In this document: positions 4,464 through 45,699 of the stretch, one piece after another | Position numbering within the stretch: the stretch's first letter is position 1 | How the letters are laid out: each line of letters starts with the position of its first letter | The notes under the pieces: generated by a model | Database searches by the model: none | Seen by the model: only the letters and a program-made list of their open reading frames with translations | What the model was told of the DNA's origin: nothing | Position numbers and translations under genes: made by a program | NCBI GenBank assembly: GCA_963729715.1 | Contig: CAVSPA010000003.1 | Coordinates: 1-64,000, forward strand | Length of the DNA: 64,000 nt | Direction of reading: 5' to 3' | DNA from: an uncultured delta proteobacterium | GTDB lineage: Bacteria; Desulfobacterota; Syntrophia; Syntrophales; UBA2185

Positions 4464-4521
4464 GGACTCAAAATCCCCCGGACGCAAGTCCATCCCGGTT
4501 CGACCCCGGGCTCCGGCACCA
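4464..4521 (+). repeat. 3' half of tRNA-Leu(CAA), att site
   Basis: Anticodon arm GGA-CTCAAAA-TCC, long variable arm, GGTTCGAC T-loop, ends CACCA; no D-arm or 5' acceptor strand upstream. Confidence 0.8.
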
Positions 4522-4530
4522 GTAATCATC

Positions 4531-4569: not shown

Positions 4570-6467
<1,898 letters not shown>

Positions 6468-6758
6468 CCGGGTTACGCCGTCCTATAACTCTCAAAGCCC
6501 CGTCATTCGTGGGTTTGCCGACCTCAAATAAGGTATTATACTCTTTTTATATCCTCAATCTAAATGAATCCCCATTGTGAAACCGAGGTGTATTCAATAA
6601 TTATGGTCAAAATTCGGCATCTTTAAGAGTATTACCATTCTCTTAAAAATATCCCGGATTTCTTCGACATTATCTGAAAAATCTTGTATATTGCCGCAAG
6701 CATACACTGTAGTTGTCATCATCACAAATCATACTCTCTTATATTAAGGGAGAAATCC

Positions 6759-7292
6759 ATGAAAAGAATTACAGCCACAGTTTTATCATTCCTGATTCTG
6801 AGTTTCGTTGCGACCACAGCATTTGCTTTTCAAGCTGACATTACGAAGGTCTGCTTCAGTCCCGGTGGCGGCTGCACCGAATCCATAGTCAAAGAGATCA
6901 ATGCTGCAAAATCAGAAATCCTGGTTCAGGCATATTCATTTACATCAGCCCCTATCGCCAAGGCCCTGACAAGCGCTCTCAAGAGAGGTGTCAAAGTGGA
7001 AGCACTACTTGATAAGAGTCAACGGAAAGAAAGATACACATCTGCCACTTTCATATCTAATGCCGGCATCCCTACCTTCACAGATGATAAACACGCCATA
7101 GCCCATAACAAGATCATGATTATTGACAAGGAGATTGTAATCACCGGTTCTTTCAACTTTACCAAAGCTGCTGAGGAGAAGAATGCGGAGAATTTGTTGG
7201 TCATTAAGAATAAAGACCTGGCGAAGATTTACGTGGACAATTGGTATAAACACAGAGAACATTCAGAAGAATATGAGGGAAATAAACAATGA
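6759..7292 (+). CDS. Secreted phospholipase D family nuclease (Nuc-like, single HKD)
   Basis: Signal peptide; [31 protein letters not shown] motifs; RBS before ATG 6759. Confidence 0.9.
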
Positions 7293-7864
7293 AAAAATCA
7301 CTTGGTGCAAAAACGATCATTTATCCTGCTCCGGTGTTAGTGATCGGTTCATACGACAAGAATGGAAACCCCAATGTAATGACCGCAGCATGGGGCGGAA
7401 TATGCTGTTCTTCCCCGCCCTGTGTAACCGTCTCACTGAGAAAGGCCACATATACCTATGCCAGTATCTGTGAACGGAAGGCTTTTACCGTTAATGTCCC
7501 TTCAGAAAAGTATGTCGAAGCGGTCGATTATTTCGGAATCACCTCCGGCAGGAACGAAGACAAGTTCTCAAGAAGTGGATTAACCCCTGTAAAAAGCGAT
7601 CTTGTGGATGCTCCTTATGTCGGGGAATTTCCGTTCATCCTTGAATGCCGGCTCATTCATACGCATGAGATTGGACTTCATACGCAGTTTATTGGAAAGA
7701 TTCTTGATATCAAGGCGGATGAAAACTTCTTGGATGATAAAGGTGCCTTGTCAGTAGAGAAAATCAAACCGATTACCTATACCCCTGAATATGGCTATTA
7801 CTTTGGTCTGGGCAAGGAGCTTGGCAAAGCACATTCCATAGGAAAAAGAATAAGCAAAGAATAG
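7289..7864 (+). CDS. Flavin reductase family protein (flavoredoxin-like)
   Basis: [27 protein letters not shown] motifs. Confidence 0.85.
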
Positions 7865-8036
7865 TCATTATTAGCAGGACAGGGGTTTCACGTAATCATT
7901 AACATATCGCTATAAAGAAAGGTGCAAGATGAAGAAAAGAAATGGAATCATAGTGTAATGAAAGCCTCAAAGAGATCGTTGAACCGGATCACTCCTGCCT
8001 TGTTGTTTGGAATGCTTCCAGGCACGTTCTGGCAGC

Positions 8037-8150
8037 AAATATTTCTGGACCGGAAGGCGCCGTTAATACTTTTTCACCCGCAGTGTAAAAAGAGATTCAA
8101 AATTTTGCCAAGGAGCTTGAGAGAGATCCTTAATTTATGAAAAAAGCAGG
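8037..8150 (+). pseudogene. 3'-end remnant of the 11469-11885 gene
   Basis: Translates NISGPEGAVNTFSPAV*KEIQNFAKELERDP*FMKKAG versus NTSGAEAAFNSFSPAVQREIQDIARELEKDPEFMKKAG. Confidence 0.8.
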
Positions 8151-8172
8151 TTATCTGAAATAAACGGGACGA

Positions 8173-8685
8173 ATGATAATGACGGACCAAAATGACACTG
8201 TATCTGTTGAAGATATTTTAAAAATTCTTACACGTGAGAGATTTCATGCAATATGGGAAGCAGCAAAAGCTGGCAGCACTGCCGAATTGAATGATGAAGA
8301 CAAGAAACTCGCCCAGATCATGCTACAACATCAGGAAGAATTTCATAATCAACTTGAGTTTGCCGATGTTATGTCAGATCATGATTTCGATCCGGAACAT
8401 GAGACCAATCCTTTTCTACACATTCTGTTACACTCGGTTGTTGAAAACCAGCTTGAGCTACGAGATCCGATTGAGGTCTATCAGTTTTATCTATCCATGA
8501 GACGGAAGAAATGCGATCATCATGAGGCTGTTCATCTTGTCAGTGTTGTCTTCGTTTTTTTTCTGTTTGAGACATTGAAATATAAGATACCTTTCGATAA
8601 TGCTGGTTATAGAAATTCTCTGAAAAGACACAGAGACAAGAAGCCTGAGAAGATCATGGCCGCTATGGAAAAAGAGAAAGGTTAA
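8173..8685 (+). CDS. DUF1841-like protein
   Basis: ETNPFLHI.LH.....Q motif, HEA.H. Confidence 0.7.
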   Translation: MIMTDQNDTVSVEDILKILTRERFHAIWEAAKAGSTAELNDEDKKLAQIMLQHQEEFHNQLEFADVMSDHDFDPEHETNPFLHILLHSVVENQLELRDPIEVYQFYLSMRRKKCDHHEAVHLVSVVFVFFLFETLKYKIPFDNAGYRNSLKRHRDKKPEKIMAAMEKEKG

Positions 8686-8808
8686 TATAACGCCCTTTAC
8701 CAGCAACATTCAGAATCTCTTGCCGGTAAAGACATCGGAATAAAACATCATGGGAGCAAATTAGCTCATAGGGATATGCACAAAACCATTTGCACGGAGC
8801 AATTTTAA

Positions 8809-9060
8809 ATGTCCATCCATGTAATTCCAGTCAACAGACTAAGCCAGGAAGCACTACAAGGAGTTATTGAAGAATTTATTTCCAGAGATGGAACTGATTA
8901 TGGTGAAGTAGAAGTTTCCATGGAAACAAAATTCAGACAAGCAAAATACAAACTTGAATCTGGATTAGCAATTCTAATTTTTGATGATGAGGCTGAAACC
9001 ACCAATATATTTTCAAGGGACGACCCTGTGTTAAAAACCCTTCCGGATAATGGGGTGTAA
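8809..9060 (+). CDS. YheU (UPF0270) family protein
   Basis: LS.EAL..VIEEFISRDGTDYG motif. Confidence 0.85.
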   Translation: MSIHVIPVNRLSQEALQGVIEEFISRDGTDYGEVEVSMETKFRQAKYKLESGLAILIFDDEAETTNIFSRDDPVLKTLPDNGV

Positions 9061-9162
9061 TATAAGAAACAGTGGCATATTTTCTTAGTAATCTTAAAAA
9101 TTTCTCGTCAACTTGTCCAGAATTTCTTATAAGAAGATCATCATTTCACCAGGAGGATAAAA

Positions 9163-9348
9163 ATGAAAAACGTAGAGATGAAGGTTGAAAATAATGTCCT
9201 GACCATTCAGGTTGATCTTACAAAAGAATTTGGCCCATCATCATCGGGAAAGACCATAATCATTGCATCAACAGAAGGAAATGTTTCCATTCCTGGAAAT
9301 GAAGAGGCTAAGATAGGACTGAATATATATAAATATCCGAAGAAGTAG
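9163..9348 (+). CDS. Conserved small hypothetical protein
   Basis: AGGAGG RBS; GPSSSGKTIIIASTEGN...IGLNIY. Confidence 0.75.
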   Translation: MKNVEMKVENNVLTIQVDLTKEFGPSSSGKTIIIASTEGNVSIPGNEEAKIGLNIYKYPKK

Positions 9349-9463
9349 CCCAGAGAAAAGATCTGTGGGTAACTGCTGCAGGAACTGGCCAAATCAGATA
9401 CCGACAAATGGATCGGCGGTGTCTGTCTTCGTAGATGATAAACATGCCATAGCTCATAAGAAG

Positions 9464-10039
9464 ATGATCTTTCGACTCACATTAAAACTGGCTAAAAAAA
9501 TCGGAATCGCTCCTTTGCCAGCTATTCCATACGATGATAACAGAAATCCCATACTTGACTGGAACGCACATCTGTTCACAGCGCAGCGCACCCAATATAT
9601 AATTTTGACAAATACCGTATCTCTATACTCCATAGTCATGCAAGGGCGGGGGATTACTAACGACAAGAAGTTTATTCGAGAAGCATTGTCCTGTATGCAC
9701 GACTTTATGATCATCGACGGGAATAAAGTCATGTATGAAAATATCATCGAACCAGAGAGTAAAATAATATATTTTTCTAAGATAGTTGATCGGCGAGTCT
9801 CAGGATCAATGAATGATTTTATATTTCAGGCGAAAATTGATCTTATCGAGGGGCATAAACAGCCATTTGATGTTTCACTTCGGCTGAATGAATCTCCGAT
9901 GTCGTATTTGAACTATAGCCATCCCAGAAATGAATTTCAGAAATTACATTTAACGGAAGAAGAACCATCAACAAATAGGCAGAGAGGAAGTAATATTATT
10001 TATATTAACAGGGTTCGCCCGCCCACAACAAGATCATGA
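9464..10039 (+). CDS. Hypothetical protein (DUF6933-like)
   Basis: MIFRLT.KLAKK..., DWNAHLF, GSMNDF, LN..PM pattern; ATG 9464 preferred because upstream codons are a PLD remnant. Confidence 0.65.
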   Translation: MIFRLTLKLAKKIGIAPLPAIPYDDNRNPILDWNAHLFTAQRTQYIILTNTVSLYSIVMQGRGITNDKKFIREALSCMHDFMIIDGNKVMYENIIEPESKIIYFSKIVDRRVSGSMNDFIFQAKIDLIEGHKQPFDVSLRLNESPMSYLNYSHPRNEFQKLHLTEEEPSTNRQRGSNIIYINRVRPPTTRS

Positions 10040-10191
10040 TCATTTTGCAGGGGTATGGTGAGCACGGAAGGCTTCAATTTGACAAGGAAAAGAATGCGGA
10101 GAATGTATTGGTCATTAAATCTAAGGATCTGGCGAAGATATATCTGGACAACTGGATGAAGCATAAGGAGCATTCTGAGGAGTATGATTGA
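10021..10191 (+). pseudogene. Degenerate 3' half of a PLD nuclease gene (companion piece at 9429-9465)
   Basis: AHNKIMII...EKNAENVLVIKSKDLAKIYLDNWMKHKEHSEEYD* matches C-terminus of 6759-7292. Confidence 0.85.
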
Positions 10192-10236
10192 AGAGCAGAG
10201 AATTGAATCAGCTGTTTGTAAAAGAGAGCAAGTACA

Positions 10237-11136
10237 GTGAGAAATACATTTATCAGATTCAGGCACAAATATTTCACTTTCTTCGTAACGATCCTTTTCA
10301 CACTTACATTTGCTTTTCCCATCCAAGCACTCGAAAATCAGCCAGCAAACAAATCCCCTGAGAAAAAGATTAAAGGAACCATTGTAATGATCCATGGTAT
10401 GTTTGATGGTTCCTGGTGCTGGGACAATTTCAAGAAATACTTTGAGGACAGAGGATACAAATGCATTACACCGACGCTCAGATATCACGATACTCCTCCC
10501 AGTTCTCCTGCAAATCCTAATCTCGGAACCACGAGCATTGTCGATTACGTCAATGACATTGAAAAGGAAATCAAAAGGCTCGATCAGCCCCCCATTATTA
10601 TCGGTCATTCCATGGGTGGTCTTATCTCTCAGGTCCTGGCAAGCCGAGGTCTGGTCAAATCAGCTGTTTTAATAGCACCGGCTGCTCCAAGGGGTATTAA
10701 TGCAATAACATGGTCAGTCATTAAAAGCGCTTGGTACAACAGGGAACGAATGGGGTTGTGGGATGAACCTATATTACCCACTTTTGAAGGAGCGGCATAT
10801 TCATCTTTACAGCTGTTGACGCCTCAAGAGCAGAAGAGGGTCTATAAAAGGTTTTCACATGAATCTGGGAGAGCAGCTTGGGAGATAGGATTCTGGATGT
10901 TTGACGTAAAGAAGGCTACATTTATTGATGCTGAAAAAGTGACCTGTCCCGTATTAATTATCGGCGGGACGGAAGATCGATTGACCCCACCATCTGTCAC
11001 AAGGGAAATTCAGGATAAGTATAAAAAGAACTCCACCTATATTGAATTTAATAATCATGCCCATTGGATTATCGGTGAAGAAGGGTGGGAAACGGTTGCG
11101 GAAGTCATTTATGACTGGTTAAAACGTTTACCATGA
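10237..11136 (+). CDS. Secreted alpha/beta hydrolase
   Basis: IHGM, GHSMGG nucleophile, D and H (HAHW) triad positions; signal peptide. Confidence 0.9.
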   Translation: MRNTFIRFRHKYFTFFVTILFTLTFAFPIQALENQPANKSPEKKIKGTIVMIHGMFDGSWCWDNFKKYFEDRGYKCITPTLRYHDTPPSSPANPNLGTTSIVDYVNDIEKEIKRLDQPPIIIGHSMGGLISQVLASRGLVKSAVLIAPAAPRGINAITWSVIKSAWYNRERMGLWDEPILPTFEGAAYSSLQLLTPQEQKRVYKRFSHESGRAAWEIGFWMFDVKKATFIDAEKVTCPVLIIGGTEDRLTPPSVTREIQDKYKKNSTYIEFNNHAHWIIGEEGWETVAEVIYDWLKRLP

Positions 11137-11160
11137 AAAAGAACAAGGAGGGGATATGTA

Positions 11161-11442
11161 ATGGCTCTGACAAAAATCGATCTTGTTGACATGATCTATA
11201 GTGAATTGGACATACCTAAGAAAGAATGCATCAATCTGGTGGAGAGCTTCTTTGATATTATTAGGGATGAACTTGTCAAGGGTAACGACATCATGATTTC
11301 GGGATTCGGTAGGTGGTCAGTGAAACAGAAGAGACCCAGGCTAGGCCGGAACCCTCACACAGGAGAGCAGATGATCATCGATGCAAGAAGGGTGGTTAAG
11401 TTTAAACCGTCTGTTGTGTTGAGGAATACTATAAACGATTAA
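11161..11442 (+). CDS. Integration host factor alpha-like (HU/IHF) protein
   Basis: MALTK.D, ISGFG, GRNPHTGE motifs. Confidence 0.9.
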   Translation: MALTKIDLVDMIYSELDIPKKECINLVESFFDIIRDELVKGNDIMISGFGRWSVKQKRPRLGRNPHTGEQMIIDARRVVKFKPSVVLRNTIND

Positions 11443-11468
11443 CCCAATTTGTAAAGAGGTGATATGTT

Positions 11469-11885
11469 ATGAAATCCAAATTTTTGATGATATTGGGAGT
11501 TACAATCTTTACATTCATCTTTCTAGCGAACAATACATTTGCACAAGACCAGTCACACGAAGCAGCCATGTCCATGCTGAAAGACTTTTTTGCTGATCCT
11601 GTTGCGAGAGCGGATTACGCGTCAAAAAATCCCGAGGCATTACAGGCTGAACAAAGCCTTTCACAATTTCCGCCAAATATTCAAAAGAGACTTGAAAAGG
11701 TGGTCCTCATGATCATGCAGGAAAGTGGTACAAATGCTACCAAATATGTTGATGCAAAGAATACCTCCGGGGCGGAAGCCGCATTTAATTCTTTTTCACC
11801 TGCAGTACAAAGAGAGATTCAAGATATTGCCAGGGAGCTTGAGAAAGATCCGGAGTTTATGAAAAAAGCAGGTCCTCCAAAATAA
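11469..11885 (+). CDS. Secreted hypothetical protein
   Basis: Signal peptide ending TFA; GAGG RBS. Confidence 0.7.
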   Translation: MKSKFLMILGVTIFTFIFLANNTFAQDQSHEAAMSMLKDFFADPVARADYASKNPEALQAEQSLSQFPPNIQKRLEKVVLMIMQESGTNATKYVDAKNTSGAEAAFNSFSPAVQREIQDIARELEKDPEFMKKAGPPK

Positions 11886-11938
11886 ATGGTTGGACATACT
11901 CTTGGATCAAACGACAGGGCATTAAAGGGAGGAAAGTC

Positions 11939-12700
11939 ATGGAAGCTGAATTTAAGGAGAGATTTTTACAAGACTGGACAAGGTATTTTCCAGGTGCTGA
12001 ATTGCCTATCGGGTTTTATTATTCCGATACGGCCGAACTGAAATTTATGGCCAAACCACCCAAAGGACACCGTTGCATTATTGGAGATTTAGCGAAAGTC
12101 AGGAACGGGAAAACCCTATGCTTTGACACCCATACGATTGGTTGCGGCGGCGGTAAACGATACCTTGGATTCGAGAGCAAACAAGCACCCAATTTTGAAT
12201 ATTTTCTATCTTATGGAATTCCCGGCAAACTGGAAGGAGAAAGGTATAAGAAATCACCGGAACTTGTCAAAGAACATATGAACTACCAGAAGCCGTCAAA
12301 AGCACCCGGAGACTATATTATCTTCAAAAGATGGGATCAGATGGAGGATAGGGATAAGCCTTTGGTGGTTATTTTCTTTGCCCCGCCTGATGTCCTTTCC
12401 GGTCTTTTTACGCTGGCTAATTATGATGAACCGCAGCCCAACGGCGTCATTGCCCCTTTTGGTGCTGGATGTGCATCTATTGTTGATTATCCCTATAAAG
12501 AACTTGAATCTTCTGAGCCCCGTGCCGTGTTAGGCATGTTCGATGTTTCAGCACGCCCCTGCGTTTCATCCAATGTACTGAGCTTTGCTGTTCCCTGGCC
12601 GAAATATGTCCGCATGGTGGATAACATGAAAGAGAGCTTCCTCATCACCAAATCGTGGGATAAAGTAAGACTGAGAATGAAAGATAAGAAATACTCTTAA
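11939..12700 (+). CDS. DUF169 family protein
   Basis: C.GG..YLG, PFGAGC, D.SAR motifs; near-identical copy at 41674. Confidence 0.8.
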   Translation: MEAEFKERFLQDWTRYFPGAELPIGFYYSDTAELKFMAKPPKGHRCIIGDLAKVRNGKTLCFDTHTIGCGGGKRYLGFESKQAPNFEYFLSYGIPGKLEGERYKKSPELVKEHMNYQKPSKAPGDYIIFKRWDQMEDRDKPLVVIFFAPPDVLSGLFTLANYDEPQPNGVIAPFGAGCASIVDYPYKELESSEPRAVLGMFDVSARPCVSSNVLSFAVPWPKYVRMVDNMKESFLITKSWDKVRLRMKDKKYS

Positions 12701-12731
12701 TCAGCTTTATAAGGTTCTGAAGGAGGAACAA

Positions 12732-14195
12732 ATGGCACTAAGAACAAAGGAAGAATATTTCTCAAAGCTAAAAACACTCAACACGCAACTGTACGCATTT
12801 GGAGAAAGGGTGCAGGACTTTACAAATCACCCTTGCTTGAAACCTCCCATCGAAGCAATCGGACTTGTCTATGAATTGGCATCTCAAAAGGAAAATGAAG
12901 ATTTCCTGACGACCCATTCTCCTTTCATCAACGATAAGATAAGCCGTTTCGTCCATATTATGCAGGATCGGGAAGATCTGGGAACGCGCTTTAGACTGGC
13001 CAGATTCATGGTCCATAAACATGGAGCTTGCATCGGTGCCCGTTGTGTAAGCACAGGAGCCGTCAATTCTGTCTTTGCGGGGACCAAAGATGTGGACCAG
13101 GCTTTGGGGACAAATTATCACAGCCGTTTTCTTGAATTTCTAAAGTATATACAGAGCAATGACCTGGCTGTTGCGGGAGCCATGATGGATGTGAAAGGCG
13201 ATAGAAGCCTCAGCCCTGGCGACCAGAAGGATCCGGACATGTATCTTCGTATTGTTGAAAGGAGAGAAAACGGGATTGTCGTCAGAGGAGCCAAATCAAG
13301 TATTTCCGGCGCGGTCATTGCTGACGAGGTTGTAGTTTTACCCTGTACCACCCTGAAACAAGGAGAAGAGGAATATGCTGTCTGCTTTGCCGTCCCATCT
13401 GACACACCTGGATTACTTCACATAGCGGAAGCTCCTGCCTCCAATGCGAGAAGGTTTATTGGCGATGAGATGGATTATGGGAATGCCAAGTACGGCGCGC
13501 ATGGATCGACCCATTTGATCTTTGATGATGTTTTTGTCCCTTGGGACCGGGTGTTTCTATGTGGTGAGAGCAAATATGCCGGCAGTTACGTGAATTACTT
13601 TGCCCTCCTGCAAAGATTAGCCACTTCCGGATGTAAGACAGGTCATAGAGATCTTCTTATCGGCGCTGCCGCGACTGTGGCTGACTATAATGGTTCAGGC
13701 AATGCCAAGCACATCCGCGACAAGTTGACGGATCTTTACTTTCAGAGTGAACTTTCCGCCGGTTGCGCCCTGGCATCCGTTTATACCGCACGAAAGAGCC
13801 CTTCAGGTGTATTTTTCCCCGACTCCCTATATATCAACATCGCCAAGCTTCAGGGCGTTAACTCGATCTGGAACGGGAATTACATCACGGGTGATATTGC
13901 CGGTGGTCTTGTCTGCACTGTCCCTACTGCCAAAGACTTGAAAAACGATCAGATTGGTAAGTTTGTGGAGAAGTACTTCAAAGCCAAAGAAGGGGTTCCA
14001 ACGGAAAATCGTATCAGGATGATGAGGCTTATCGAGTATCTAACTGGACAGGGCTCGGTTGTTCCTATGGAATCAACGCATGGCGCAGGATCTCCTCAGG
14101 CCCAGAAGATCTTCATCCAGCAATCGCTCATGCAAAATATAGATAAATTCAAAAAAGATGCTATGGAAATGGCTGGAATCAAAGAGAAGAAATAA
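12732..14195 (+). CDS. 4-hydroxybutyryl-CoA dehydratase / HpaB family flavoprotein
   Basis: DVKGDRS, GIVVRGAK, FDDVFVPWDRVF, HGAGSPQAQ motifs. Confidence 0.85.
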   Translation: MALRTKEEYFSKLKTLNTQLYAFGERVQDFTNHPCLKPPIEAIGLVYELASQKENEDFLTTHSPFINDKISRFVHIMQDREDLGTRFRLARFMVHKHGACIGARCVSTGAVNSVFAGTKDVDQALGTNYHSRFLEFLKYIQSNDLAVAGAMMDVKGDRSLSPGDQKDPDMYLRIVERRENGIVVRGAKSSISGAVIADEVVVLPCTTLKQGEEEYAVCFAVPSDTPGLLHIAEAPASNARRFIGDEMDYGNAKYGAHGSTHLIFDDVFVPWDRVFLCGESKYAGSYVNYFALLQRLATSGCKTGHRDLLIGAAATVADYNGSGNAKHIRDKLTDLYFQSELSAGCALASVYTARKSPSGVFFPDSLYINIAKLQGVNSIWNGNYITGDIAGGLVCTVPTAKDLKNDQIGKFVEKYFKAKEGVPTENRIRMMRLIEYLTGQGSVVPMESTHGAGSPQAQKIFIQQSLMQNIDKFKKDAMEMAGIKEKK

Positions 14196-14256
14196 GTGCT
14201 GAGAAGCTGAGATCAGAAATTAACCATAGTTCACATAACAGCAAAGGAGGATAGAA

Positions 14257-14823
14257 ATGGATTTCAAAACACTTTTAATAAACAGGCGTGCCATCAGGGA
14301 CTTTCAAAATAATAAGGAAGTGCCTTTATCAGTAATAAAAGAAATCATTCAGGACACATGTCTTGCCCCGACAGCCACTAATCGCCAACCATGCAAGTTT
14401 ATCATTATCCAGAACCGTGATTACATGAAAAAGCTCTCCGATGAAAGTAAGAAGACCCTCCTTTCCGATCTTGAACGGAATCCTGAGTCACCACTGAAAC
14501 AATATGAACCCCGTCTGCGTGACGAGCAATTCAATGTCTTTTACAATGCACCCTGCCTTGTTTATGTCGTCGGTCCCACAGAGGTGCAGTCACTTGACGT
14601 GGATTGTGGTCTTACGGTTGCATATTTTATGTTCTCTGCCACCTCCAGAGGATTGGGAACCTGCTGGATCGGATTAGGGGCTCATATCCGTGACCGAGAG
14701 ATCCTTGATGACATGGGAGTGCCAAAGGATTGTGAAATAGTTGCACCTGTTATTCTTGGTTACCCGACCAGTGTTCCTCCAGCCTCTGAAAGGCACGCTC
14801 CTGATATACTGAAGATTATATGA
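14257..14823 (+). CDS. Nitroreductase family protein
   Basis: RRAIRDF, APTATNRQP, GLGTCWIG; paralogue at 40370. Confidence 0.9.
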   Translation: MDFKTLLINRRAIRDFQNNKEVPLSVIKEIIQDTCLAPTATNRQPCKFIIIQNRDYMKKLSDESKKTLLSDLERNPESPLKQYEPRLRDEQFNVFYNAPCLVYVVGPTEVQSLDVDCGLTVAYFMFSATSRGLGTCWIGLGAHIRDREILDDMGVPKDCEIVAPVILGYPTSVPPASERHAPDILKII

Positions 14824-15392
14824 AGGATACATATCCCATGAGCAGTGATAGAATTCCCTCCAGAGAGGAATGTGATGGACTCATGGTGCAACATTCCATG
14901 CGACCAAACATCGTTGAGCATTCCATTCAGGTAATGCACGTTTCTCTGGCGATAGCAGACAATCTAAAAAATGGTGTAGCAGTGAACAGGGACCTGGTTA
15001 TTGCAGCCGCACTCCTGCACGACATTACCAAGACGAGATCTCTTAAAACAAAGGAGCGACACGATTTATCGGGCGGAGAGCTTCTACGAGAAATTGGATT
15101 TACAAGCATAGCTGAGATTGTGGAGCAGCATGTTGTCTTGCAGAATTTAAATCCGCAGGGAAGGCTTGAGGAGCGGGAGATTATATACTATGCAGACAAG
15201 AGGGTGATGCACAACAAGATAGTGACTATCGATGAGAGGGTGCATGATCTGTTGCAACGATATGGAAATACAGAGGAGATAGAAAGCCTGATAAGTCAAA
15301 ACAAAGACTTGATACGCGCCGTTGAGAGCAAGATCGCCAGCTTTATGAAAATTGACATAAATAGTGCTATTGAGGAAATAAGAGCGATTTAG
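14820..15392 (+). CDS. HD domain metal-dependent phosphohydrolase
   Basis: H...AALLHDI.K...H...G, YADKR. Confidence 0.85.
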   Translation: MKDTYPMSSDRIPSREECDGLMVQHSMRPNIVEHSIQVMHVSLAIADNLKNGVAVNRDLVIAAALLHDITKTRSLKTKERHDLSGGELLREIGFTSIAEIVEQHVVLQNLNPQGRLEEREIIYYADKRVMHNKIVTIDERVHDLLQRYGNTEEIESLISQNKDLIRAVESKIASFMKIDINSAIEEIRAI

Positions 15393-15400
15393 AGCAACCG

Positions 15401-15790
15401 GTGATGAGTAACAAGGAAGATAAAAGACAGTATAAGTTGTGGAAATATTTTGAATGTCAAAGATGCGGAAAATGTTGTCTTGAACTCGGTCTACCTTATA
15501 ACCAAGAATCACTCTTAAATATGTCTACATATCTAAACATTTCCGAAAAAAAGGTTATCGAAAAATATTATGGGGAATTATCGGATGGTTCTAAATGGGA
15601 ATCGAATGACAGGAAAAGAATTCCATGTCCTTTTTTAAAAAGCACTTGTGCGGGATATTATTGTGAAATCTATCCTGCGAGACCAGAGGGCTGCAGAGTG
15701 TATCCTATGGAATCAGTAGGCGGACGATTTTGCCCAAGATGGGAAATTGCAATCTCAAAATTGAAAAAAGAACAGGAAGAAGAAATATAG
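15401..15790 (+). CDS. YkgJ family Cys-cluster protein
   Basis: C..CG.CC, CPFL, C.IYP.RP..C..YP. Confidence 0.85.
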   Translation: MMSNKEDKRQYKLWKYFECQRCGKCCLELGLPYNQESLLNMSTYLNISEKKVIEKYYGELSDGSKWESNDRKRIPCPFLKSTCAGYYCEIYPARPEGCRVYPMESVGGRFCPRWEIAISKLKKEQEEEI

Positions 15791-15853
15791 GAAGGAGCTC
15801 ATCGATATTCAAGATATCCCCAAAACCCAATACCACACAAACTCCGAGACTCT

Positions 15854-16023
15854 TGACGTTAAAAATCGCGTCTGAATATTTAGGGCTCACGGTATGGAGC
15901 CTGCGCACAAGGATTTGGGCTGGCGAAATACCAGTAGTGAGATTTCGAGGTGGTCGAAAGATATTTATTGATCGGCAAGACCTTGAGGATTTCATCCAGA
16001 GAAATAAAGAAACGTACACTTAA
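15854..16023 (+). CDS. Excisionase-like helix-turn-helix protein (start uncertain, possibly 5'-damaged)
   Basis: LT...ASEYLGL......R.I..GEIP..R..GRKIFIDR.DL; next to att site. Confidence 0.7.
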
Positions 16024-16300
16024 AGGTGAAACCTTATATCTGATTTTTATGTCTGCTCGGTGGCAGTCATGGGGCTGACTGGGAAGAAGAAGTGAAACAG
16101 CGAGATAATCGGATCTATAGTCCGCCGCCTCTATGTGCTAAATTTGTGATAGGCCAGACTGTAAACGGCGAGAAAAGACGGAGATCGACGGAGATAGGTA
16201 GAATAAATAGAATTCAATTTTTACCCAATATTTTAAACAGTGGCGTGAAACCAGACCAGTTATCAAGGGTTTAATAACTTACTGTTATTTCATATATTTT

Positions 16301-16358
16301 GGCCTCAAAATACCCCGACCCCACGGTCATCCCGGTTCGATTCCGGGCTCCGGCACCA
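16301..16358 (+). repeat. Second, more degenerate tRNA-Leu 3' fragment, att site
   Basis: CTCAAAAT...CATCCCGGTTCGATTCCGGGCTCCGGCACCA, direct repeat of 4464-4521. Confidence 0.8.
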
Positions 16359-16368
16359 GAATAAAATC

Positions 16369-39046: not shown

Positions 39047-39059
39047 GCGGTTTCCTTTC

Positions 39060-39262: not shown

Positions 39263-39342
39263 TCTTTGAATATACAAGGTGTACTCAAACGACTATGGTC
39301 AAAATTCGATATTTTTAAGAGTATTACCATTCTCTTAAAAAT

Positions 39343-39420
39343 CCCCATGCCCTGTGGGGGCACCACGAAGCCATGAAAATAACTTGTTATAGTTTTCGGC
39401 GGTTCTATTTTCGTATTAAT
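39343..39420. mobile_element. 78-bp insertion relative to the paralogous promoter at about 6650
   Basis: Present only in this copy; AAT on both sides; hairpin CCCCA..TGGGG and ATGAAAATA/TATTTTCGT inverted repeat. Confidence 0.6.
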
Positions 39421-39531: not shown

Positions 39532-40059
39532 ATGAAAAGAATTACAGCCACAGTTTTATCATTCCTGATTCTGAGTTTCGTTGCGACCACAGCACATGCT
39601 TTTCAAGCTGACATTACGAAGGTCTGCTTCAGTCCCAATGGCGGGTGCACCGAATGCATAGTGAAAGAAATCAATACCGCAAAATCAGAGATTCTGGTCC
39701 AGGCGTATTCATTCACATCAGCACCAATTGCAAAGGCCCTGACAGATGTTTTCAAGAGAGGCGTCAAAGTAGAAGCAATACTTGATAAGAGCCAGCGAAG
39801 AGAAAAATACACAGCAGCCACTTTTATATCTAATGCCGGTATTCCGACCTATATAGATGATAAACACGCCATAGCTCATAACAAGATCATGATTATTGAC
39901 AAGGAAACTGTGATTACAGGGAGCTTTAATTTTACCAAAGCTGCAGAGGAAAAGAATGCGGAGAATTTGTTGGTCATCAAATCTAAAGAACTGGCAAAAG
40001 AGTACATGGACAACTGGCACAAGCATAGAGAACATTCAGAGAAGTACGAGGGAAAATAG
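39532..40059 (+). CDS. Secreted PLD family nuclease, paralogue of 6759
   Basis: HNKIMIID...TGSFNFT; identical signal peptide start. Confidence 0.9.
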   Translation: MKRITATVLSFLILSFVATTAHAFQADITKVCFSPNGGCTECIVKEINTAKSEILVQAYSFTSAPIAKALTDVFKRGVKVEAILDKSQRREKYTAATFISNAGIPTYIDDKHAIAHNKIMIIDKETVITGSFNFTKAAEEKNAENLLVIKSKELAKEYMDNWHKHREHSEKYEGK

Positions 40060-40061
40060 AA

Positions 40062-40367
40062 ATGGCGCTGACTAAAATCGACCTTGTTGACATGATCTAT
40101 AATGAATTGGGCATTCCCAAGAAAGAATGCATCGATCTGGTTGAAAGCTTCTTTGATATTATCAAGGATGAACTCGCCAAGGGTAACGCCTTCATGATCT
40201 CAGGATTCGGCAAGTGGTCAGTGAAACAGAAGAGACCTAGGCTAGGCCGGAACCCTCACACAGGAGAGCAGATTATCATTGATGCAAAAAGGGTGGTTAC
40301 GTTCAAGAGTGCGCCACCGCTGAGATCAGAAATAAACCATGGTTCACATAGCAGCAAAGGAGGATAG
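40062..40367 (+). CDS. IHF alpha-like protein
   Basis: ISGFG, GRNPHTGE; paralogue of 11161. Confidence 0.9.
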   Translation: MALTKIDLVDMIYNELGIPKKECIDLVESFFDIIKDELAKGNAFMISGFGKWSVKQKRPRLGRNPHTGEQIIIDAKRVVTFKSAPPLRSEINHGSHSSKGG

Positions 40368-40369
40368 AA

Positions 40370-40933
40370 ATGGATTTCCAGACACTCTTAATAAACAGGC
40401 GTGCCATCAGGGATTTTCAAAATAAAGAAGTGCCGTTATTAGTAATCAAAGAAATCATTCAGGACACCTGTCTTGCCCCGACAGCCACTAATCGCCAACC
40501 ATGCAAGTTTATCATTATTCGGAACCGTGACTACATTAAAAAACTCTCAGATGAAAGTAAGAAGAACCTTCTTTCGGATCTTGAACGGAACCCTGAGTCA
40601 CCACTGAAACAATATGAACCCCGTCTGCGCGACGAACAATTCAATGTCTTTTATAATGCGCCTTGCCTGGTTTACGTCATCGGTCCCAAGGAGGTGCACT
40701 CACTTGATGTGGATTGTGGCCTTACGGTTGCATATTTTATGTTCTCCGCTACCTCCAGAGGATTGGGAACCTGCTGGATCGGATTAGGGGCTCATATCCG
40801 TGACCGCAAGATCCTTGATGACATGGGAGTCCCTGTGGATTGTCAAATAGTGGCACCTGTTCTTATTGGGTATCCGACCAGTATTCCTCCAGCTTCTGAA
40901 AGGCACGCTCCAGAAATTGTGAAGATTATATGA
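40370..40933 (+). CDS. Nitroreductase family protein
   Basis: Paralogue of 14257. Confidence 0.9.
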   Translation: MDFQTLLINRRAIRDFQNKEVPLLVIKEIIQDTCLAPTATNRQPCKFIIIRNRDYIKKLSDESKKNLLSDLERNPESPLKQYEPRLRDEQFNVFYNAPCLVYVIGPKEVHSLDVDCGLTVAYFMFSATSRGLGTCWIGLGAHIRDRKILDDMGVPVDCQIVAPVLIGYPTSIPPASERHAPEIVKII

Positions 40934-40949
40934 TTAACATCAGAATCAA

Positions 40950-41300
40950 ATGAAAAAGAATTTGAAACTAATACCTGTGTTCGTAGTCATCCTGGGTATT
41001 ATCATCGCCTCCGCCTGCAGCGACAATAAATTGAGCAGACCTTGGGGAATTTCAGATGAAACAATCCATTCGATTGTAAAGTCAGAATTAAAATGCGATG
41101 GAATCAGTATCATCGTTGACAAGGTCGGTGCTCCTCAAACCGTATGTGATCAACTGGGAGGCTGTAATGATTATGCTGATATTCAGGTGGCGATAGAAGG
41201 AGTCTGTGAGGATAAGGGCATTAAGGGATCATATGTTCTTAGACTATACAGGGGCGAGTTGGGTAATTACAGGGGAAAGATGATAAAGAATACCGATTGA
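40950..41300 (+). CDS. Putative lipoprotein
   Basis: Signal peptide with ASAC lipobox. Confidence 0.65.
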   Translation: MKKNLKLIPVFVVILGIIIASACSDNKLSRPWGISDETIHSIVKSELKCDGISIIVDKVGAPQTVCDQLGGCNDYADIQVAIEGVCEDKGIKGSYVLRLYRGELGNYRGKMIKNTD

Positions 41301-41320
41301 AAAAAGCGAAAGTATAGAAA

Positions 41321-41578
41321 ATGCCAGAAAGCGATATTGAATTTGAAGAATTTGAGTGTTCAAAAATAGGTACTGAAGTCACGATTACTCGTCAAGTTTT
41401 CCTTCATAGGAACGCTTTAACAGATAAAGTGAATGGAAGGGCTATAGTAGATATAGATTGTGATCACAACATGGACTGCGGTGTCGGCAAGAGAAATGGG
41501 GACAATACAATTTACGACTGGAATAAGTGTGTTCACCCGGATTTAAGAGAAAGAAATATTCGAAAAGCCAATGAATGA
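41321..41578 (+). CDS. Small Cys-containing hypothetical protein
   Basis: 85-aa ORF in operon context. Confidence 0.55.
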   Translation: MPESDIEFEEFECSKIGTEVTITRQVFLHRNALTDKVNGRAIVDIDCDHNMDCGVGKRNGDNTIYDWNKCVHPDLRERNIRKANE

Positions 41579-41673
41579 ACTTCCCATGAGAAAATCAATT
41601 CTAACCTCAACCATTGTTCTGTTTCTCAGTACACTGCTTGAGGGCTCTTGTGATCCCCAAAAGGAGGAGAGTC

Positions 41674-42438
41674 ATGGACGCTGAATTTAAGGAAAGATTT
41701 TTACAAAACTGGAACAGATATTTTCCCGGTGCTGAATTACCTATCGGGTTTTATTATTCCGATACGGCCGAACTGAAATTTATGGCCAAACCACCCAAAG
41801 GACACCGTTGCATTATTGGAGATTTAGCGAAAGTCAGGAACGGGAAAACCCTATGCTTTGACACCCATACGATTGGTTGCGGCGGCGGTAAACGATACCT
41901 TGGATTCGAGAGCAAACAAGCACCCAATTTTGAATATTTTCTATCTTATGGAATTCCCGGCAAACTGGAAGGAGAAAGGTATAAGAAATCACCGGAACTT
42001 GTCAAAGAACATATGAACTACCAGAAGCCGTCAAAAGCACCCGGAGACTATATTATCTTCAAAAGATGGGATCAGATGGAGGATAGGGATAAGCCTTTGG
42101 TGGTTATTTTCTTTGCCCCACCTGATGTCCTTTCCGGTCTTTTTACGCTGGCTAATTATGATGAACCGCAGCCCAACGGCGTCATTGCCCCTTTTGGTGC
42201 TGGATGTGCATCTATTGTTGATTATCCCTATAAAGAACTTGAATCTTCTGAGCCACGTGCCGTGTTAGGCATGTTTGATGTTTCAGCACGCCCCTGCGTT
42301 TCATCCAATGTACTGAGCTTTGCTGTTCCCTGGCCGAAATATGTCCGCATGGTGGATAACATGAAAGAGAGCTTCCTCATCACCAAATCGTGGGATAAAG
42401 TAAGAATGAGAATGAAAAGAGACAAGGAATGCTCTTAA
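41674..42438 (+). CDS. DUF169 family protein
   Basis: Near-identical to 11939; AGGAGG RBS before ATG 41674. Confidence 0.8.
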   Translation: MDAEFKERFLQNWNRYFPGAELPIGFYYSDTAELKFMAKPPKGHRCIIGDLAKVRNGKTLCFDTHTIGCGGGKRYLGFESKQAPNFEYFLSYGIPGKLEGERYKKSPELVKEHMNYQKPSKAPGDYIIFKRWDQMEDRDKPLVVIFFAPPDVLSGLFTLANYDEPQPNGVIAPFGAGCASIVDYPYKELESSEPRAVLGMFDVSARPCVSSNVLSFAVPWPKYVRMVDNMKESFLITKSWDKVRMRMKRDKECS

Positions 42439-42496
42439 TCATCAATCTCTATAATAAATGATCGAAATAAATTGTTCCGAGATAAGGCGGTAAACA

Positions 42497-42673
42497 ATGG
42501 CCGAAAAATTTGATCCCCAAGAGCTTGTGAGTTTTAGAGAGATGCTTATGACCGAAGTCATCACATCTGAAGCCATCATCAATCTTCTGGATAAAAAAGG
42601 CAGCATTAGCAAGCTGGAACTTATGAAAGAGATGAAACGTGTTCAGGCATCCATGACTAAGGGTGAAAAGTGA
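42497..42673 (+). CDS. 58-aa protein missing from the ORF track, homologue of 54212-54433
   Basis: MAEKFDPQELVSFREMLMTEVITSEAIINLLDKKGSISKLELMKEMKRVQASMTKGEK. Confidence 0.75.
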   Translation: MAEKFDPQELVSFREMLMTEVITSEAIINLLDKKGSISKLELMKEMKRVQASMTKGEK

Positions 42674-42707
42674 TTAAACCACCTGGAGAGTTAAAAGTCA
42701 CATTTCA

Positions 42708-42899
42708 GTAAACTACCACCGACCTTGTCGGTGGCCTTTAAAATGCGGCAAGCCTACGGACAATGTCCTTCGCCTTGCCTGATAAGGGTTGAAACGGCTA
42801 TTCTAAAATATTGTTCACCAACATTGTTGGTTCACTGAAGGTGTGGGGCCTCCGCCCCCACGCCCCACCACTGACATTGTCAGTGGTTTTGACAGATAA
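42708..42899 (-). mobile_element. Second copy of the 192-bp IS200/IS605-like element
   Basis: Reverse complement of 23888-24079 with differences mainly in the central AT-rich part; follows TTTAT on the minus strand. Confidence 0.8.
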
Positions 42900-42914
42900 A
42901 TAAAGGAGAGAAAT

Positions 42915-43205
42915 ATGGCAGACAAACCCGATCCGAAGCAACCCGCACAGATTCAGATTAATACCGTTGATGAAATATCGAGAGGCAGATACAGAAATTT
43001 GATGCTGGTATCACATAGCCCGGAAGAGTTCATGCTTGACTGGCTCTTAAACTCACCCAATGGCACTCACTTGGTTTCAAGAATAATATTAAGTCCGGGC
43101 AATGTGAAGAGAGCGATCGAAGCCCTAACGATAAACCTGAAACAGTATGAAGATAAATTCGGGACTGTGAAACTAATTGATCCGGGAGAGCAGAAGGTTC
43201 ATTAA
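42915..43205 (+). CDS. DUF3467-like protein
   Basis: G.Y.N...V.HS.EEF.LD, SRII.SP..VK....AL..N...YE..FG. Confidence 0.8.
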   Translation: MADKPDPKQPAQIQINTVDEISRGRYRNLMLVSHSPEEFMLDWLLNSPNGTHLVSRIILSPGNVKRAIEALTINLKQYEDKFGTVKLIDPGEQKVH

Positions 43206-43559
43206 CGTAATATGAGAAAGAATTGCAAAGAATGAAATCCTGTCTTAACCAGAAAGGAACGGGAGAATCGACTGCAGAGAAAAATGAAAGAGAAATGTAA
43301 ATTGTTGAGATAATCGGATCAATAGTTTGCCGCTCCATACCCCGGCGCACGCGTTATTTGTTTGTTACGGGCCGACTCCTCGCACGATCATATCTCTTCC
43401 TTATGCCCTTATGTGCCCTGAACCATACTTGAGTTTACAGCCATTGTCATATCGAGTCGTGATTATTGACTTCACCTACCTATACGTAACATAATCTGAT
43501 TTCGCTATTGATATTAATGTGTTAAGTTGTGTTTAAGATCTCATAGTTTTGTTCTTTCG

Positions 43560-44453
43560 TCAAGGATTATCTGGGTTGCAAGCCGTTCGTTGCATGATCA
43601 CCTCCATGGCTTTAAAGTAATCTCTCTGTACTTTGATGTTTGATACACGGCAGTATCGTTGTGTCGTTCTGATTGAGTTGTGTCCCAGGAGATCCTGGAT
43701 GGTGGAGAGATCAGTGTCGGCGTTCAACATCTGTGTGGCCATCGTGTGCCGTAAATGATGACAGGATATTTTTAAACCCGTCCTGCGGGCATAATATTCC
43801 ATACGCTTCTGGATACCGCGAATGGAGATGGGCTGCCCGGTGAGAGGCCCTTTCTCTACCAGAAAAACTTTTTTTACTTTATTGGCCGGTCTCACCCTTA
43901 TGTATTCCAGGAGTACACGGAGGGCGTCGTTGCTGATATAGACGATCCGGTCCTTGGCGCCCTTGCCATCCTGAATGAGTAACGTTCTGCGTTTAATATC
44001 TATGCTGCCGAGAGAAAGATGGGCAACTTCTTCCACCCGTAATCCGCACCGCAGCATGAGCATGAACATGGCGTGATCCCGGCGCCCCTTCAGGTTTTGA
44101 AAGAGAACCTCTATCTGTTCTTCCTTCAGGTGCCTGGGAAGTGAACGGGGGAGCTTCATGATATTCGGCTTTCTCACGGGATTGATAACATGGATTCCTT
44201 CCTCCTCAGATAGATAGTGGTAAAACTGGCAGACAGTGTTCAGGTAGCAGTTGATCGTCTTCGGCCTTAACCTCCTGCCGAGCAGGTAGTCAGTATACTC
44301 CCCGATTTTCCTGTAAGTGACGTCTTCTATAGGCACGTCAAGCCAGAGAACAAAGTGTCTCAGACCGTGTAAATAGCTCTTAATGGAATTAGGCGAGACG
44401 TTCCTCCTCTTCAGGAATCGTCTGTACCTGATGATCGAATCGGTAACGGTCAT
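43560..44453 (-). CDS. Tyrosine recombinase (XerC/D-like)
   Basis: CGLRVEE, GKG.K, HHLRH, LGH, TQRY. Confidence 0.92.
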   Translation of the reverse strand: MTVTDSIIRYRRFLKRRNVSPNSIKSYLHGLRHFVLWLDVPIEDVTYRKIGEYTDYLLGRRLRPKTINCYLNTVCQFYHYLSEEEGIHVINPVRKPNIMKLPRSLPRHLKEEQIEVLFQNLKGRRDHAMFMLMLRCGLRVEEVAHLSLGSIDIKRRTLLIQDGKGAKDRIVYISNDALRVLLEYIRVRPANKVKKVFLVEKGPLTGQPISIRGIQKRMEYYARRTGLKISCHHLRHTMATQMLNADTDLSTIQDLLGHNSIRTTQRYCRVSNIKVQRDYFKAMEVIMQRTACNPDNP

Positions 44454-45544
44454 CTGCCTTCCCCCCTTTCTATGATCGACATGGCCCTGAAGTATTCTTC
44501 CTCTCTTGTCTTGTCGGTGAGCCTTGCATAGCGCCGCGTCACGTCCAGGGAACTGTGTCCCATCAGCGGCTGAAGATGTTCGATACGCATGCCGGCGTTT
44601 AACAGCTCGCTGGCAAAGGTGTGACGAAGTGCATGCAGGGAATACCCCTTATGAGTGAGACCGGCTTTCGTGAGACACCGTTCAAAGATAAGGTAGGCCG
44701 TGCTGTAGGACATGCTCTTCGTGCCCGTGGCGTAAAAGAGAAACTCCTTTTGAGGGTCTCTCATTTTGAGCCATGCCTTCAAAGCGCTCAGCGCATCATC
44801 GCTTAAATACACAACCCGCCCCAGCCGGTTCTTCTCGCCTTCATAAATATCAATCTTGCGGTCCCTCAGGTGGAGATCATGTATCTTTGTATTGAGCAGT
44901 TCGCCGATCCTCATCCCCGTCCGTAAAAGAACCATAATCATGGCACGGTCTTTCGGATTGTCGATAACGGAAAGTAGTTGCTTAACATCGTCGGGGTCCA
45001 TGGCTCTCGGTAATGTCTCGGGCTTTTTCAGACGAATCCGTCTCGCCAGAACAGCCGCACCGACAACCCCGGCGTCCATCGCATAGCCCAAAAAGGCGTT
45101 GACGCAGTGCAGTCTCGTACGCACCGTCGAGATCTTCATGCCCCGGTCCTGCTCATGTTCGATGAACGCTTCAATGTCATTCTTGCTGATCTCCTCCAAA
45201 CGTGTCTTCCCCGCAGCCCTGACGCCTTTCAGAAAGTCGTGAATGGCATTAAGGGCACTCTCATATGTCCTCGGCCGGAAGTTCCGCCGGTACATGCCCC
45301 GGATATACTCCTCAACATGCCCTTTGCCTGGCAGTTCCCAGCCTGCGAGGCGATCCAATGCCCGGCGAAGGGCTTTCGCCTCCTGCGTGTATTCAGGATA
45401 AAATACCTTCCCTGATTTTCCTCTATAGATCTCGGGTAAAATAACGGGGGGGAGAAACCCTGCATCCAGATCGCTGCTTCCAAAATCTGCCAGGGGTTCT
45501 TTCTCTGATGTGATACTGCAATTTTCTGTGGTCATCTGGTCCAT
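44450..45544 (-). CDS. Tyrosine recombinase (XerC/D-like)
   Basis: TGMRIGE, EKN, HALRH, MGH, RRY; ATGA overlap with partner. Confidence 0.92.
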   Translation of the reverse strand: MDQMTTENCSITSEKEPLADFGSSDLDAGFLPPVILPEIYRGKSGKVFYPEYTQEAKALRRALDRLAGWELPGKGHVEEYIRGMYRRNFRPRTYESALNAIHDFLKGVRAAGKTRLEEISKNDIEAFIEHEQDRGMKISTVRTRLHCVNAFLGYAMDAGVVGAAVLARRIRLKKPETLPRAMDPDDVKQLLSVIDNPKDRAMIMVLLRTGMRIGELLNTKIHDLHLRDRKIDIYEGEKNRLGRVVYLSDDALSALKAWLKMRDPQKEFLFYATGTKSMSYSTAYLIFERCLTKAGLTHKGYSLHALRHTFASELLNAGMRIEHLQPLMGHSSLDVTRRYARLTDKTREEEYFRAMSIIERGEGR

Positions 45545-45699
45545 CGCTATCTCCTTTCCTTTAATTCAATAGGAAATACAGATAGATGATGACCATCAGA
45601 ACATTAACTGTCAATCATCATTTTGTTACGTATAGCATCCTCAAGTCCTCAATTCATGTAATGGGATTATACCGATGATTACGACTTGAAATGCTCAAA

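Follow-up and report, generated by a model that had tools for sequence, protein, structure and literature searches.

The 64,000-nucleotide window analysed here is the start of contig C3 of G000, the 3.76-Mb metagenome-assembled genome of an uncultured delta proteobacterium of the Syntrophales. It carries two co-oriented gene arrays, each headed by a gene for a PLD-family nuclease: array 1 runs from the PLD start codon at 6759 to the end of an HTH_17 frame at 16023, and array 2 from 39532 to 43205, as an initial annotation of the window had described. Judging from comparison of sequences, it is fairly probable that each array starts at an 11-6-11 crossover site of a tyrosine recombinase of ~205 amino acids (aa) and constitutes an interchangeable block in tRNA islands with ordered slots, the genes within the block being reshuffled by homologous and microhomology recombination. 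G000 was compared with 61 relatives, 301 genomes of the class and 401 genomes of the phylum, all of them metagenome-assembled; below, G, C and L numbers denote genomes, contigs and fetched loci, respectively.

A palindromic site at the left end of the arrays

The left ends of the two arrays (6586–6650 and 39277–39342) are 88% identical and hold the palindrome TTTAAGA-NNN-[6 bp]-NNN-TCTTAAA (TTTAAGA-N12-TCTTAAA), which has an 11-6-11 layout.

6586..6618, forward strand: type-A upstream flank of the site, starting at an AGGTG junction that is the target of a two-integrase element (L085) and of another intron (L016)
6619..6650: palindromic 11-6-11 site with core TTACCA at 6632–6637, predicted crossover site
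39311..39342: second palindromic site with core TTACCA, type-A flank from 39277

The palindrome precedes the PLD promoter in some loci and unrelated DNA in others. G000 has 14 exact copies of the site, all with a 12-bp spacer, and none was obtained with shuffled and reversed controls. When up to one mismatch was allowed, the 12-bp spacer gave 15 matches and spacers of 10, 11, 13 and 14 bp gave 1–2 each. The site occurs in 8 of 10 same-genus genomes and in 44 of the 301 class genomes; it was not found in the complete same-genus genome G005, and IMG/VR gave no match to the TTACCA site pattern. Pattern scans for the left-end motif returned 14 and 26 loci (genomes and metagenomes), whose carriers were Syntrophales/Syntrophaceae or uncultured deltaproteobacteria, with an archaeal bin as the single exception; sequencing runs with part of an array were sediment, soil and peat metagenomes.

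The site coincides with a breakpoint of homology. Among 124 distinct sites, we found 97 pairs sharing a flank of at least 250 bp (75–99.9% identity), and none of these pairs shared both flanks. The core was the same within one mismatch in 92 of the 97 pairs; 82 belonged to the TTACCA class, which was the class searched for, and the other 15 comprised 10 pairs with the same core and 5 with different cores, 2 of the latter being explained by an empty slot. Upstream and downstream flank types combined freely at 42 TTACCA sites, as examined with a fuzzy classifier that merged most type C into type B. Furthermore, the right-arm variant followed the downstream flank (13/17 versus 0/13, p = 2e-5) more than the upstream flank (p = 0.07).

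Two further features were seen beside the sites. A second junction word, GTAGGTG (43473–43479 in the window; L085, L016, L149–L151), starts many flanks at a distance of 36–47 bp from the palindrome. It is where a two-integrase element and a group II intron, as well as the 5′ end of a unit present in three copies with a 279-aa tyrosine recombinase, begin or insert, and these junctions are possibly a separate cassette system. A REP-like palindrome (39343–39406) lies beside the site of array 2 with an IS110 nearby (37676–39094), and the same pairing was seen at C4:660828.

Ordered slots in tRNA islands

Within islands the sites form chains with a spacing of 2–16 kb. The tRNA-Arg island at C5:95835–150375, for example, carries the cores TGTATG (degenerate), TGCATA, CGTCAA, TACGCA and TCAGTA. 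In a test of 23 chains with 42 adjacent pairs, 35 pairs followed the order TGTATG/TGGGTC>TGCATA>CGTCAA>TACGCA>TTACCA>TCAGTA, and the maximum in 300 label shuffles, with order and orientation refitted, was 28; adjacent sites were co-oriented by core in 39 of the 42 pairs. Note that the genomes in this test are kin, and that it left out the rare cores TGTGCG, TGGGCC, CACACA, TGCAAA, TGAGTA, CACTCA, CGGCAA and TGCCAC, a degenerate TGCATA of L063, and the chains G003:C38, G010:C171 and L083. The order recurred in chains found later, namely G071:C4 and G141:C29 (both of other families), G015:C168, G015:C96 and G000:C5; the chain of G092 uses other cores.

As annotated from 80 selected proteins, the cargo of the slots includes type I restriction–modification, McrBC, GmrSD, Eco57I, OLD, TIR and CHAT-TPR genes. 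A methylmalonyl-CoA mutase block occupies the TTACCA>TCAGTA slot in G000:C4 and G008:C90, that is, in two species with unrelated outer flanks. L052 and L073 have this slot empty (57 bp), and other slot contents are PLD arrays or merely 31 bp. Some sites are followed by reverse-strand genes.

These patterns suggest a mechanism in which the ~205-aa recombinase would recombine sites with matching cores. The block between one core and the next would be exchanged by two crossovers, between co-resident islands or with an incoming one, and recombination between same-core sites would yield gain or loss where the repeats are direct and inversion where they are inverted.

A palindrome in front of a promoter could also be an operator, either of the small recombinase or of another regulator, and the breakpoints would then mark the end of a conserved promoter region. 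The positions of the site, 30–40 bp before the PLD promoter and 113–150 bp before the recombinase gene, would suit this explanation, as would homologies that run mostly downstream only. It is nevertheless unlikely, given that reverse-strand genes or empty slots follow some sites, that the cores fall into few classes with a fixed order, and that flank types and arm variants swap at the core.

A candidate recombinase

Of five candidate recombinase families, the ~205-aa family alone tracked the site. Among the class genomes, where at most 10 candidates were scored per genome, it was found in 4 of 301, all 4 of which carry sites (p = 4e-4), and it was found in 3 of the 401 phylum genomes. All three copies in the distant genome G343 have a site 113–138 bp upstream, and these sites are three of only four matches in 6.5 Mb. 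Ten copies were recovered at ≥59% identity; a site lies 113–150 bp upstream of five of them and 2.4–8 kb upstream of four, two of the four distant sites being degenerate. A search at E ≤ 1e-40 gave 533 homologs of the family, annotated simply as integrase or Xer-like. PF00589 matches the G343 copy, matches to Xer-like NCBIfam models are below their cut-offs, and the candidate at L010:3343–3963 has a catalytic domain with R-K-HxxR-H-Y residues, as judged by eye from the sequences of homologs. Another copy is encoded at G008:C68:31845–32462. Neither PLSDB plasmids nor IMG/VR yielded the recombinase, and a single-sequence AlphaFold model (pLDDT 41) was unusable.

The other families were rejected as the enzyme of the site. 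A 200-aa tyrosine recombinase located after TCAGTA is present in 2 of 61 genomes only. The 279-aa three-copy enzyme of G000 occurs in 15 of 61 genomes, including the site-free G014, G016, G018, G020, G037, G045, G053 and G059, and starts at GTAGGTG junctions instead. A family of small enzymes of 224–233 aa has a site nearby in 1 of 6 loci, and the two-integrase element has terminal repeats of its own.

The sites might instead be pdif-like substrates of the host XerC/XerD, and activity would then be accounted for even where a genome has no small recombinase. XerC/D-like genes are present, the 11-6-11 geometry is the same, and one arm variant is one base off the XerD arm of an Acinetobacter pdif in Table 1 of PMC13141974. 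On the other hand, the lineage has its own dif (C4:260908–260932 in G000, at the GC-skew maximum), which is present in 38 of 41 genomes, with a single copy in every case except one, and whose asymmetric arms differ from those of the site (7/11 matches at best). An earlier dif candidate, C4:679919, was discarded since it is conserved in only 3 of 26 genomes. The module sites are also symmetric, mostly co-oriented rather than alternating, and track the small recombinase gene. We regard the involvement of XerC/XerD as quite unlikely.

Several points weigh against slot-wise exchange by the ~205-aa recombinase. The 82 TTACCA pairs come from the class searched for and are not independent, and five flank pairs link different cores. 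Seven of the 42 adjacent pairs are off order (2 same-core repeats, 3 inversions and 2 reversals), and rare cores were dropped from that test. Neither array in the window has a second site at its right end. All long homologies in one flank comparison run downstream of the site, so that a two-sided exchange of one block was seen once only. As for the enzyme, several copies are broken, the 440 bp of upstream sequence at the G618 copy contain no site, and a 42% homolog in G397 likewise lacks one. In addition, the gene was not found in 40 of the 44 site-bearing class genomes, at ≤10 candidates scored each. Nor was it found in G000, where the recombinase would have to act in trans or to have acted in the past.

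Reshuffling of genes within the arrays

The genes of the two arrays, and of an array remnant further along the window, are as follows.

6664..6692, forward strand: predicted sigma-70 promoter, matching at 10 of 12 positions, which alone is not above chance; conserved across PLD-clade loci
6759..7292, forward strand: PLD-family Nuc-like nuclease (PLDc_2; PDB 1byr, E 2e-29) with one HKD motif and a hydrophobic N-terminus
7289..7864, forward strand: flavin reductase-like cargo, 99% to the C9 copy
8173..9348, forward strand: cargo, DUF1841 (8173–8685), UPF0270 (8809–9060) and a 61-aa open reading frame (ORF; 9163–9348)
9464..10039, forward strand: DUF6933 cargo
10237..11136, forward strand: alpha/beta hydrolase cargo
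11161..11442, forward strand: IHF-alpha-like backbone gene, with a ~20-bp eroded PLD-end-like ribosome-binding site in front
11469..14195, forward strand: cargo block, 138-aa ORF (11469–11885), DUF169 (11939–12700) and HpaB-family gene (12732–14195)
14257..15790, forward strand: cargo, nitroreductase (14257–14823), HD protein (14820–15392) and CxxCxxCC protein (15404–15790)
15730..16023, forward strand: HTH_17 (excisionase-like) reading frame
39343..39406: REP-like insert of array 2, located between the site and the promoter
39532..43205, forward strand: array 2, with PLD, IHF, nitroreductase, 116-aa and 85-aa ORFs, DUF169, a 58-aa backbone ORF, a 200-bp repeat and DUF3467
54212..55243, reverse strand: array remnant with a PLD-end stub, alpha/beta hydrolase and a homolog of the 58-aa backbone ORF, 91% to L015

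Self-comparison and Pfam agree with the annotation that the arrays share the left end and the PLD, IHF, nitroreductase and DUF169 genes, and differ in the order of their cargo. Identity between them is 86% in leader plus PLD, 88% in IHF, 91% in nitroreductase and 97% in DUF169. In 40 loci fetched from relatives, the gene order is variable and the gene pool common; the gene directly after PLD is IHF, flavin reductase, hydrolase, DUF169, the 58-aa ORF or a unique gene. PLD matches occur in 42 of 61 relatives, and 7 of 10 same-genus genomes have 3–8 each, as full copies and fragments. In G000, contig C9 ends with a third PLD–flavin reductase copy and contig C17 with an HpaB–IHF piece.

The stubs of former neighbours that had been proposed for the spacers are real. 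The 3′ stub of the 11469 gene (8038–8167, forward strand, 81%, E 7e-28) forms the leader of DUF1841, and its joint is bridged by contigs of runs X2 and X4. An IHF-type 3′ end (14206–14255, forward strand, 94% over 49 bp) acts as the nitroreductase leader, with the same junction in 3 relatives. A decayed PLD 3′ half lies at 10021–10193 (forward strand), and an internal PLD piece at 9427–9468 (forward strand; 86–93% to PLD nucleotides 318–359 of many arrays) ends at the DUF6933 start codon, so that DUF6933 sits between two PLD pieces, as expected if it had inserted into a PLD gene. The PLD-end remnant at ~55243–55205 is short (~35 bp), yet shows the same junction as L015, and in L012 an intact PLD directly precedes the hydrolase that follows the remnant here. 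After array 2, a 3′ stub of the HD gene was found at 43211–43250. The internal PLD piece, this HD stub, the tRNA-Leu remnants flanking array 1 and the palindrome of the left end had not been recorded in the annotation. The DUF6933–PLD′ unit is present in 5 loci in all (the window and 4 others) and HpaB–IHF′ in 4, and many stubs are inherited between genomes. The block at 11469–14195 is colinear with G003:C20 (94%).

A strict bias towards 3′ stubs, which the initial annotation had read from the window, did not hold. A systematic search of 36 array regions gave 38 rows, of which 15 were dropped (13 from a chimeric query starting inside IHF, 1 from another chimeric query and 1 beside an N gap). 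The 18 3′ and 5 5′ rows that were kept reduce to 11 and 5 independent junctions, and with the PLD 5′ piece of L034 added the comparison is 11 versus 6 (p = 0.33), indicating at most a mild bias. The ribosome-binding site of the next gene lies within the final codons of PLD and within the terminal part of IHF, and the PLD stubs range from ~190 down to ~20 bp, suggesting erosion down to that signal.

Recombination among sibling islands and exchange at the ends of backbone genes, also part of the annotation, are supported. The DUF169 genes of the two arrays are 96–100% identical inside (a conversion tract) and 68–90% at the 5′ edge; identity to the C9 copy rises from 75–91% in PLD to 96–100% at its end; and relatives have no fixed gene order. 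Joints with both forms known show short repeats, 10 bp between leader and PLD (L075) and 3 bp at a nitroreductase loss (L015). We propose that PLD and IHF would anchor one homologous crossover, the other falling at microhomology, and that deletion and selection would then erode the leftovers until an end with the next gene's ribosome-binding site remains. The joints are likely homology-anchored illegitimate recombination among tRNA islands and the stubs likely scars of ordinary recombination; alone, the stub arrays are a clear but ordinary case of operon accretion.

The annotation had gone further, seeing an integron-like device that captures single genes at backbone gene ends. Many joints do coincide exactly with a start or stop codon, and PLD is directly followed by six or more different genes. 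However, the spacers have no common motif beyond ribosome-binding-site/ATG words, and the stubs differ in length and polarity and are inherited. The annotation had itself noted the absence of attC sites and an integron integrase, and this was upheld: a simple attC scan gave none in array 1 and one weak candidate in array 2, none above chance, and TIGR02249 exceeded its cut-off in 0 of 5 genomes, the best match in G000 being a short Xer-like stretch. Such a device inside the arrays is very unlikely, and a site-specific system would probably exist one level up, where the left end appears to be a recombination-type site moving the whole array as a block.

Could the shuffling be an artefact of chimeric assembly among near-identical repeats? 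All genomes are metagenome-assembled, contamination of G000 is 6.5%, and no contig of the independent runs spans the whole array. Nonetheless, the copies differ by 3–25%, contigs of four independent runs bridge several junctions of the window, and different species share the same junctions. The arrays are not an assembly artefact, because independent runs bridge the junctions and relatives share them, and we give chimerism as the cause of the shuffling practically no weight. Further orders also appeared in the independent runs, for example the nitroreductase leader joined to the PLD end, and IHF joined to the promoter or to HpaB.

Two side observations concern the array backbone. L152:2751–5906 (G071:C4), located after a CGTCAA site, is an array with IHF and the 58-aa ORF that encodes a helix-hairpin-helix protein and Endonuclease_NS and has no PLD; from this case, the backbone may be an operon for handling extracellular DNA. 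A sister PLD clade resides within an F-type tra operon (TraN, TraW, TraU, TrbC, TraF) at L020:604–8479 and in L027, a possible origin of the array nuclease.

Neighbouring mobile elements and island context

The following features adjoin the arrays.

4464..4522, forward strand: att scar to the left of array 1, a 3′-half remnant of tRNA-Leu(CAA), 90% to nucleotides 30–87 of the intact tRNA at C5:21958–22044
4570..6467, forward strand: complete group II intron with reverse transcriptase (RT)/maturase at 4996–6396 (Rfam D1-D4, Intron_gpII; RVT_1 and GIIM)
16102..16300, forward strand: att-proximal island end starting with the right-end motif, with homologs at C10, L017 and L032
16301..16359, forward strand: att scar to the right of array 1, a 3′-half remnant of tRNA-Leu(CAA)
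43211..43333, forward strand: 3′ stub of the HD gene together with a truncated att-proximal end, whose motif is at 43307
43480..45635, reverse strand: two-tyrosine-recombinase element with terminal inverted repeats at the GTAGGTG junction, a separate mobile element

Capture of 5′-truncated cDNAs by the adjacent RT had been offered as a speculative source of the stubs. The RT does adjoin array 1, 3′ stubs outnumber 5′ stubs, and another intron stands at the left end in L016. Yet this RT/maturase lies inside the RNA domains of a complete, multicopy group II intron with exact ends, inserted behind a terminator-like stem; its three further copies in the genome lie behind terminator-like stems or U-tracts, none beside an array, presumably reflecting class IIC-like targeting. 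Most arrays have no RT upstream, and the 3′ bias is not significant. The intron is a passenger outside the array system, and cDNA capture is extremely improbable.

The right-end motif shared by the arrays was confirmed; it occurs at only two positions of the genome, 16102 and 43307, and was rejected as a partner recombination site since it is part of the att-proximal island end. This ~200-bp segment runs into tRNA-Lys, tRNA-Lys and tRNA-SeC remnants in C10, L017 and L032, respectively. Array 1 lies between tRNA 3′ repeats (4464–4522 and 16301–16359), as in a tRNA-targeting island; no PF00589 match was found between the two remnants, and the cognate integrase (C5:21353) adjoins the intact tRNA. 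Right-hand sequence was available for 12 arrays, of which five end at a tRNA remnant (array 1, C9, L013, L017 and L032) and seven have none at the right end (array 2, L009, L010, L011, L012, L015 and L016), suggesting that PLD operons often form the far end of tandemly stacked tRNA islands.

Several other elements were noted. The segment 16301–26300 is a decayed tRNA-Leu island with an integrase fragment, a split resolvase, ParE, HigB and AbiE toxin–antitoxin pairs and an archaeo-eukaryotic primase (AEP)–helicase, whose right att is apparently interrupted by IS200. G000:C9 has four tRNA-Glu 3′ remnants (4187, 29278, 42690 and 94618) in a long tandem stack ending in the PLD–flavin reductase copy. 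Perfect or near-perfect palindromes upstream of AbiEi-type genes (1–53, 18890–18942, 2032–2076 and 2145–2189) are probably operators. The two-tyrosine-recombinase element is a tandem with 16-bp terminal inverted repeats, and identical proteins are encoded at G000:C6:~110140–112280; it is not the three-gene recombinase-in-trio (RIT) element as characterised in PMC3414803. The 200-bp repeat at 42707–42904 (also 23880–24080) has 13 further full-length copies in the genome and resembles a miniature inverted-repeat transposable element.

Relation to known systems and implications

The closest likeness is to the pdif modules of Acinetobacter Rep_3 plasmids, in which, according to PMC13141974, gene modules are bounded by 11-6-11 tyrosine-recombinase-type sites, empty modules occur, and inversion and excision need identical or near-identical 6-bp spacers. 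That requirement fits the core matching described above (92 of 97 flank pairs, mostly one class). Compared with those modules, the sites here are symmetric and do not resemble the host dif; most are co-oriented instead of alternating as C/D, and they lie in chromosomal tRNA islands, keep a conserved core order and track a ~205-aa recombinase of their own. Because the chromosomal dif differs from them, the sites are not pdif by membership, though they appear to work like pdif.

Integrons consist of intI, attI, Pc and attC cassettes. The arrays resemble them in promoter-proximal cargo accretion with variable order and, in some loci, in a recombinase gene beside the terminal site; they differ in having no IntI over the cut-off and no attC, and in that the units are multi-gene blocks of 2–16 kb with their own promoters. 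By analogy, the interior of the arrays fits the homology-facilitated illegitimate recombination proposed for type VI secretion system effector–immunity arrays of Vibrio cholerae, where, according to PMC9711863, one crossover falls in a conserved upstream gene and the other occurs without homology, leaving orphan pieces. In contrast to those arrays, the cargo here is metabolic or of no assigned role, the anchors are nuclease and IHF genes, and there is no effector–immunity selection. The islands also resemble tRNA-targeting integrative elements such as tycheposons, in which an integrase stands at a tRNA, partial tRNAs remain as scars where elements are stacked in tandem, and primase/helicase modules and cargo are carried; internal ordered sites were not seen in the part of the tycheposon description covered (10.1101/2020.12.28.424599).

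The nuclease itself, with 177 aa, one HKD motif and an N-terminal hydrophobic stretch, is like the Nuc/NucT type (PDB 1byr and 6ehi). It scores below the NCBIfam NucT cut-offs and heads a cargo operon, and the PLD-less IHF array of G071 has Endonuclease_NS.

Turnover of defence genes and other cargo at fixed island hotspots is usually ascribed to homologous recombination in the flanks. No description of the present site system was found in the open-access literature, supplements not being covered; it appears to be dif-module-like shuffling in a new form. We tentatively suggest, with rather less confidence than in the reading of the arrays themselves, that it may be a natural recombinase-mediated cassette exchange, in which one small tyrosine recombinase of Desulfobacterota would act on mutually incompatible, core-addressed sites, ordered defence and metabolic slots would be refilled separately, and the PLD–IHF operon would be a plug-in that also accretes genes. 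Given the address-like cores and the candidate enzyme, slot-wise exchange is directly testable with a single 205-aa protein and substrates of 28 bp. Should it prove true, shuffling of the dif-module kind would not be confined to Xer but would also be carried out by a dedicated recombinase of anaerobic syntrophs, and genome engineering would gain a ready set of orthogonal sites.

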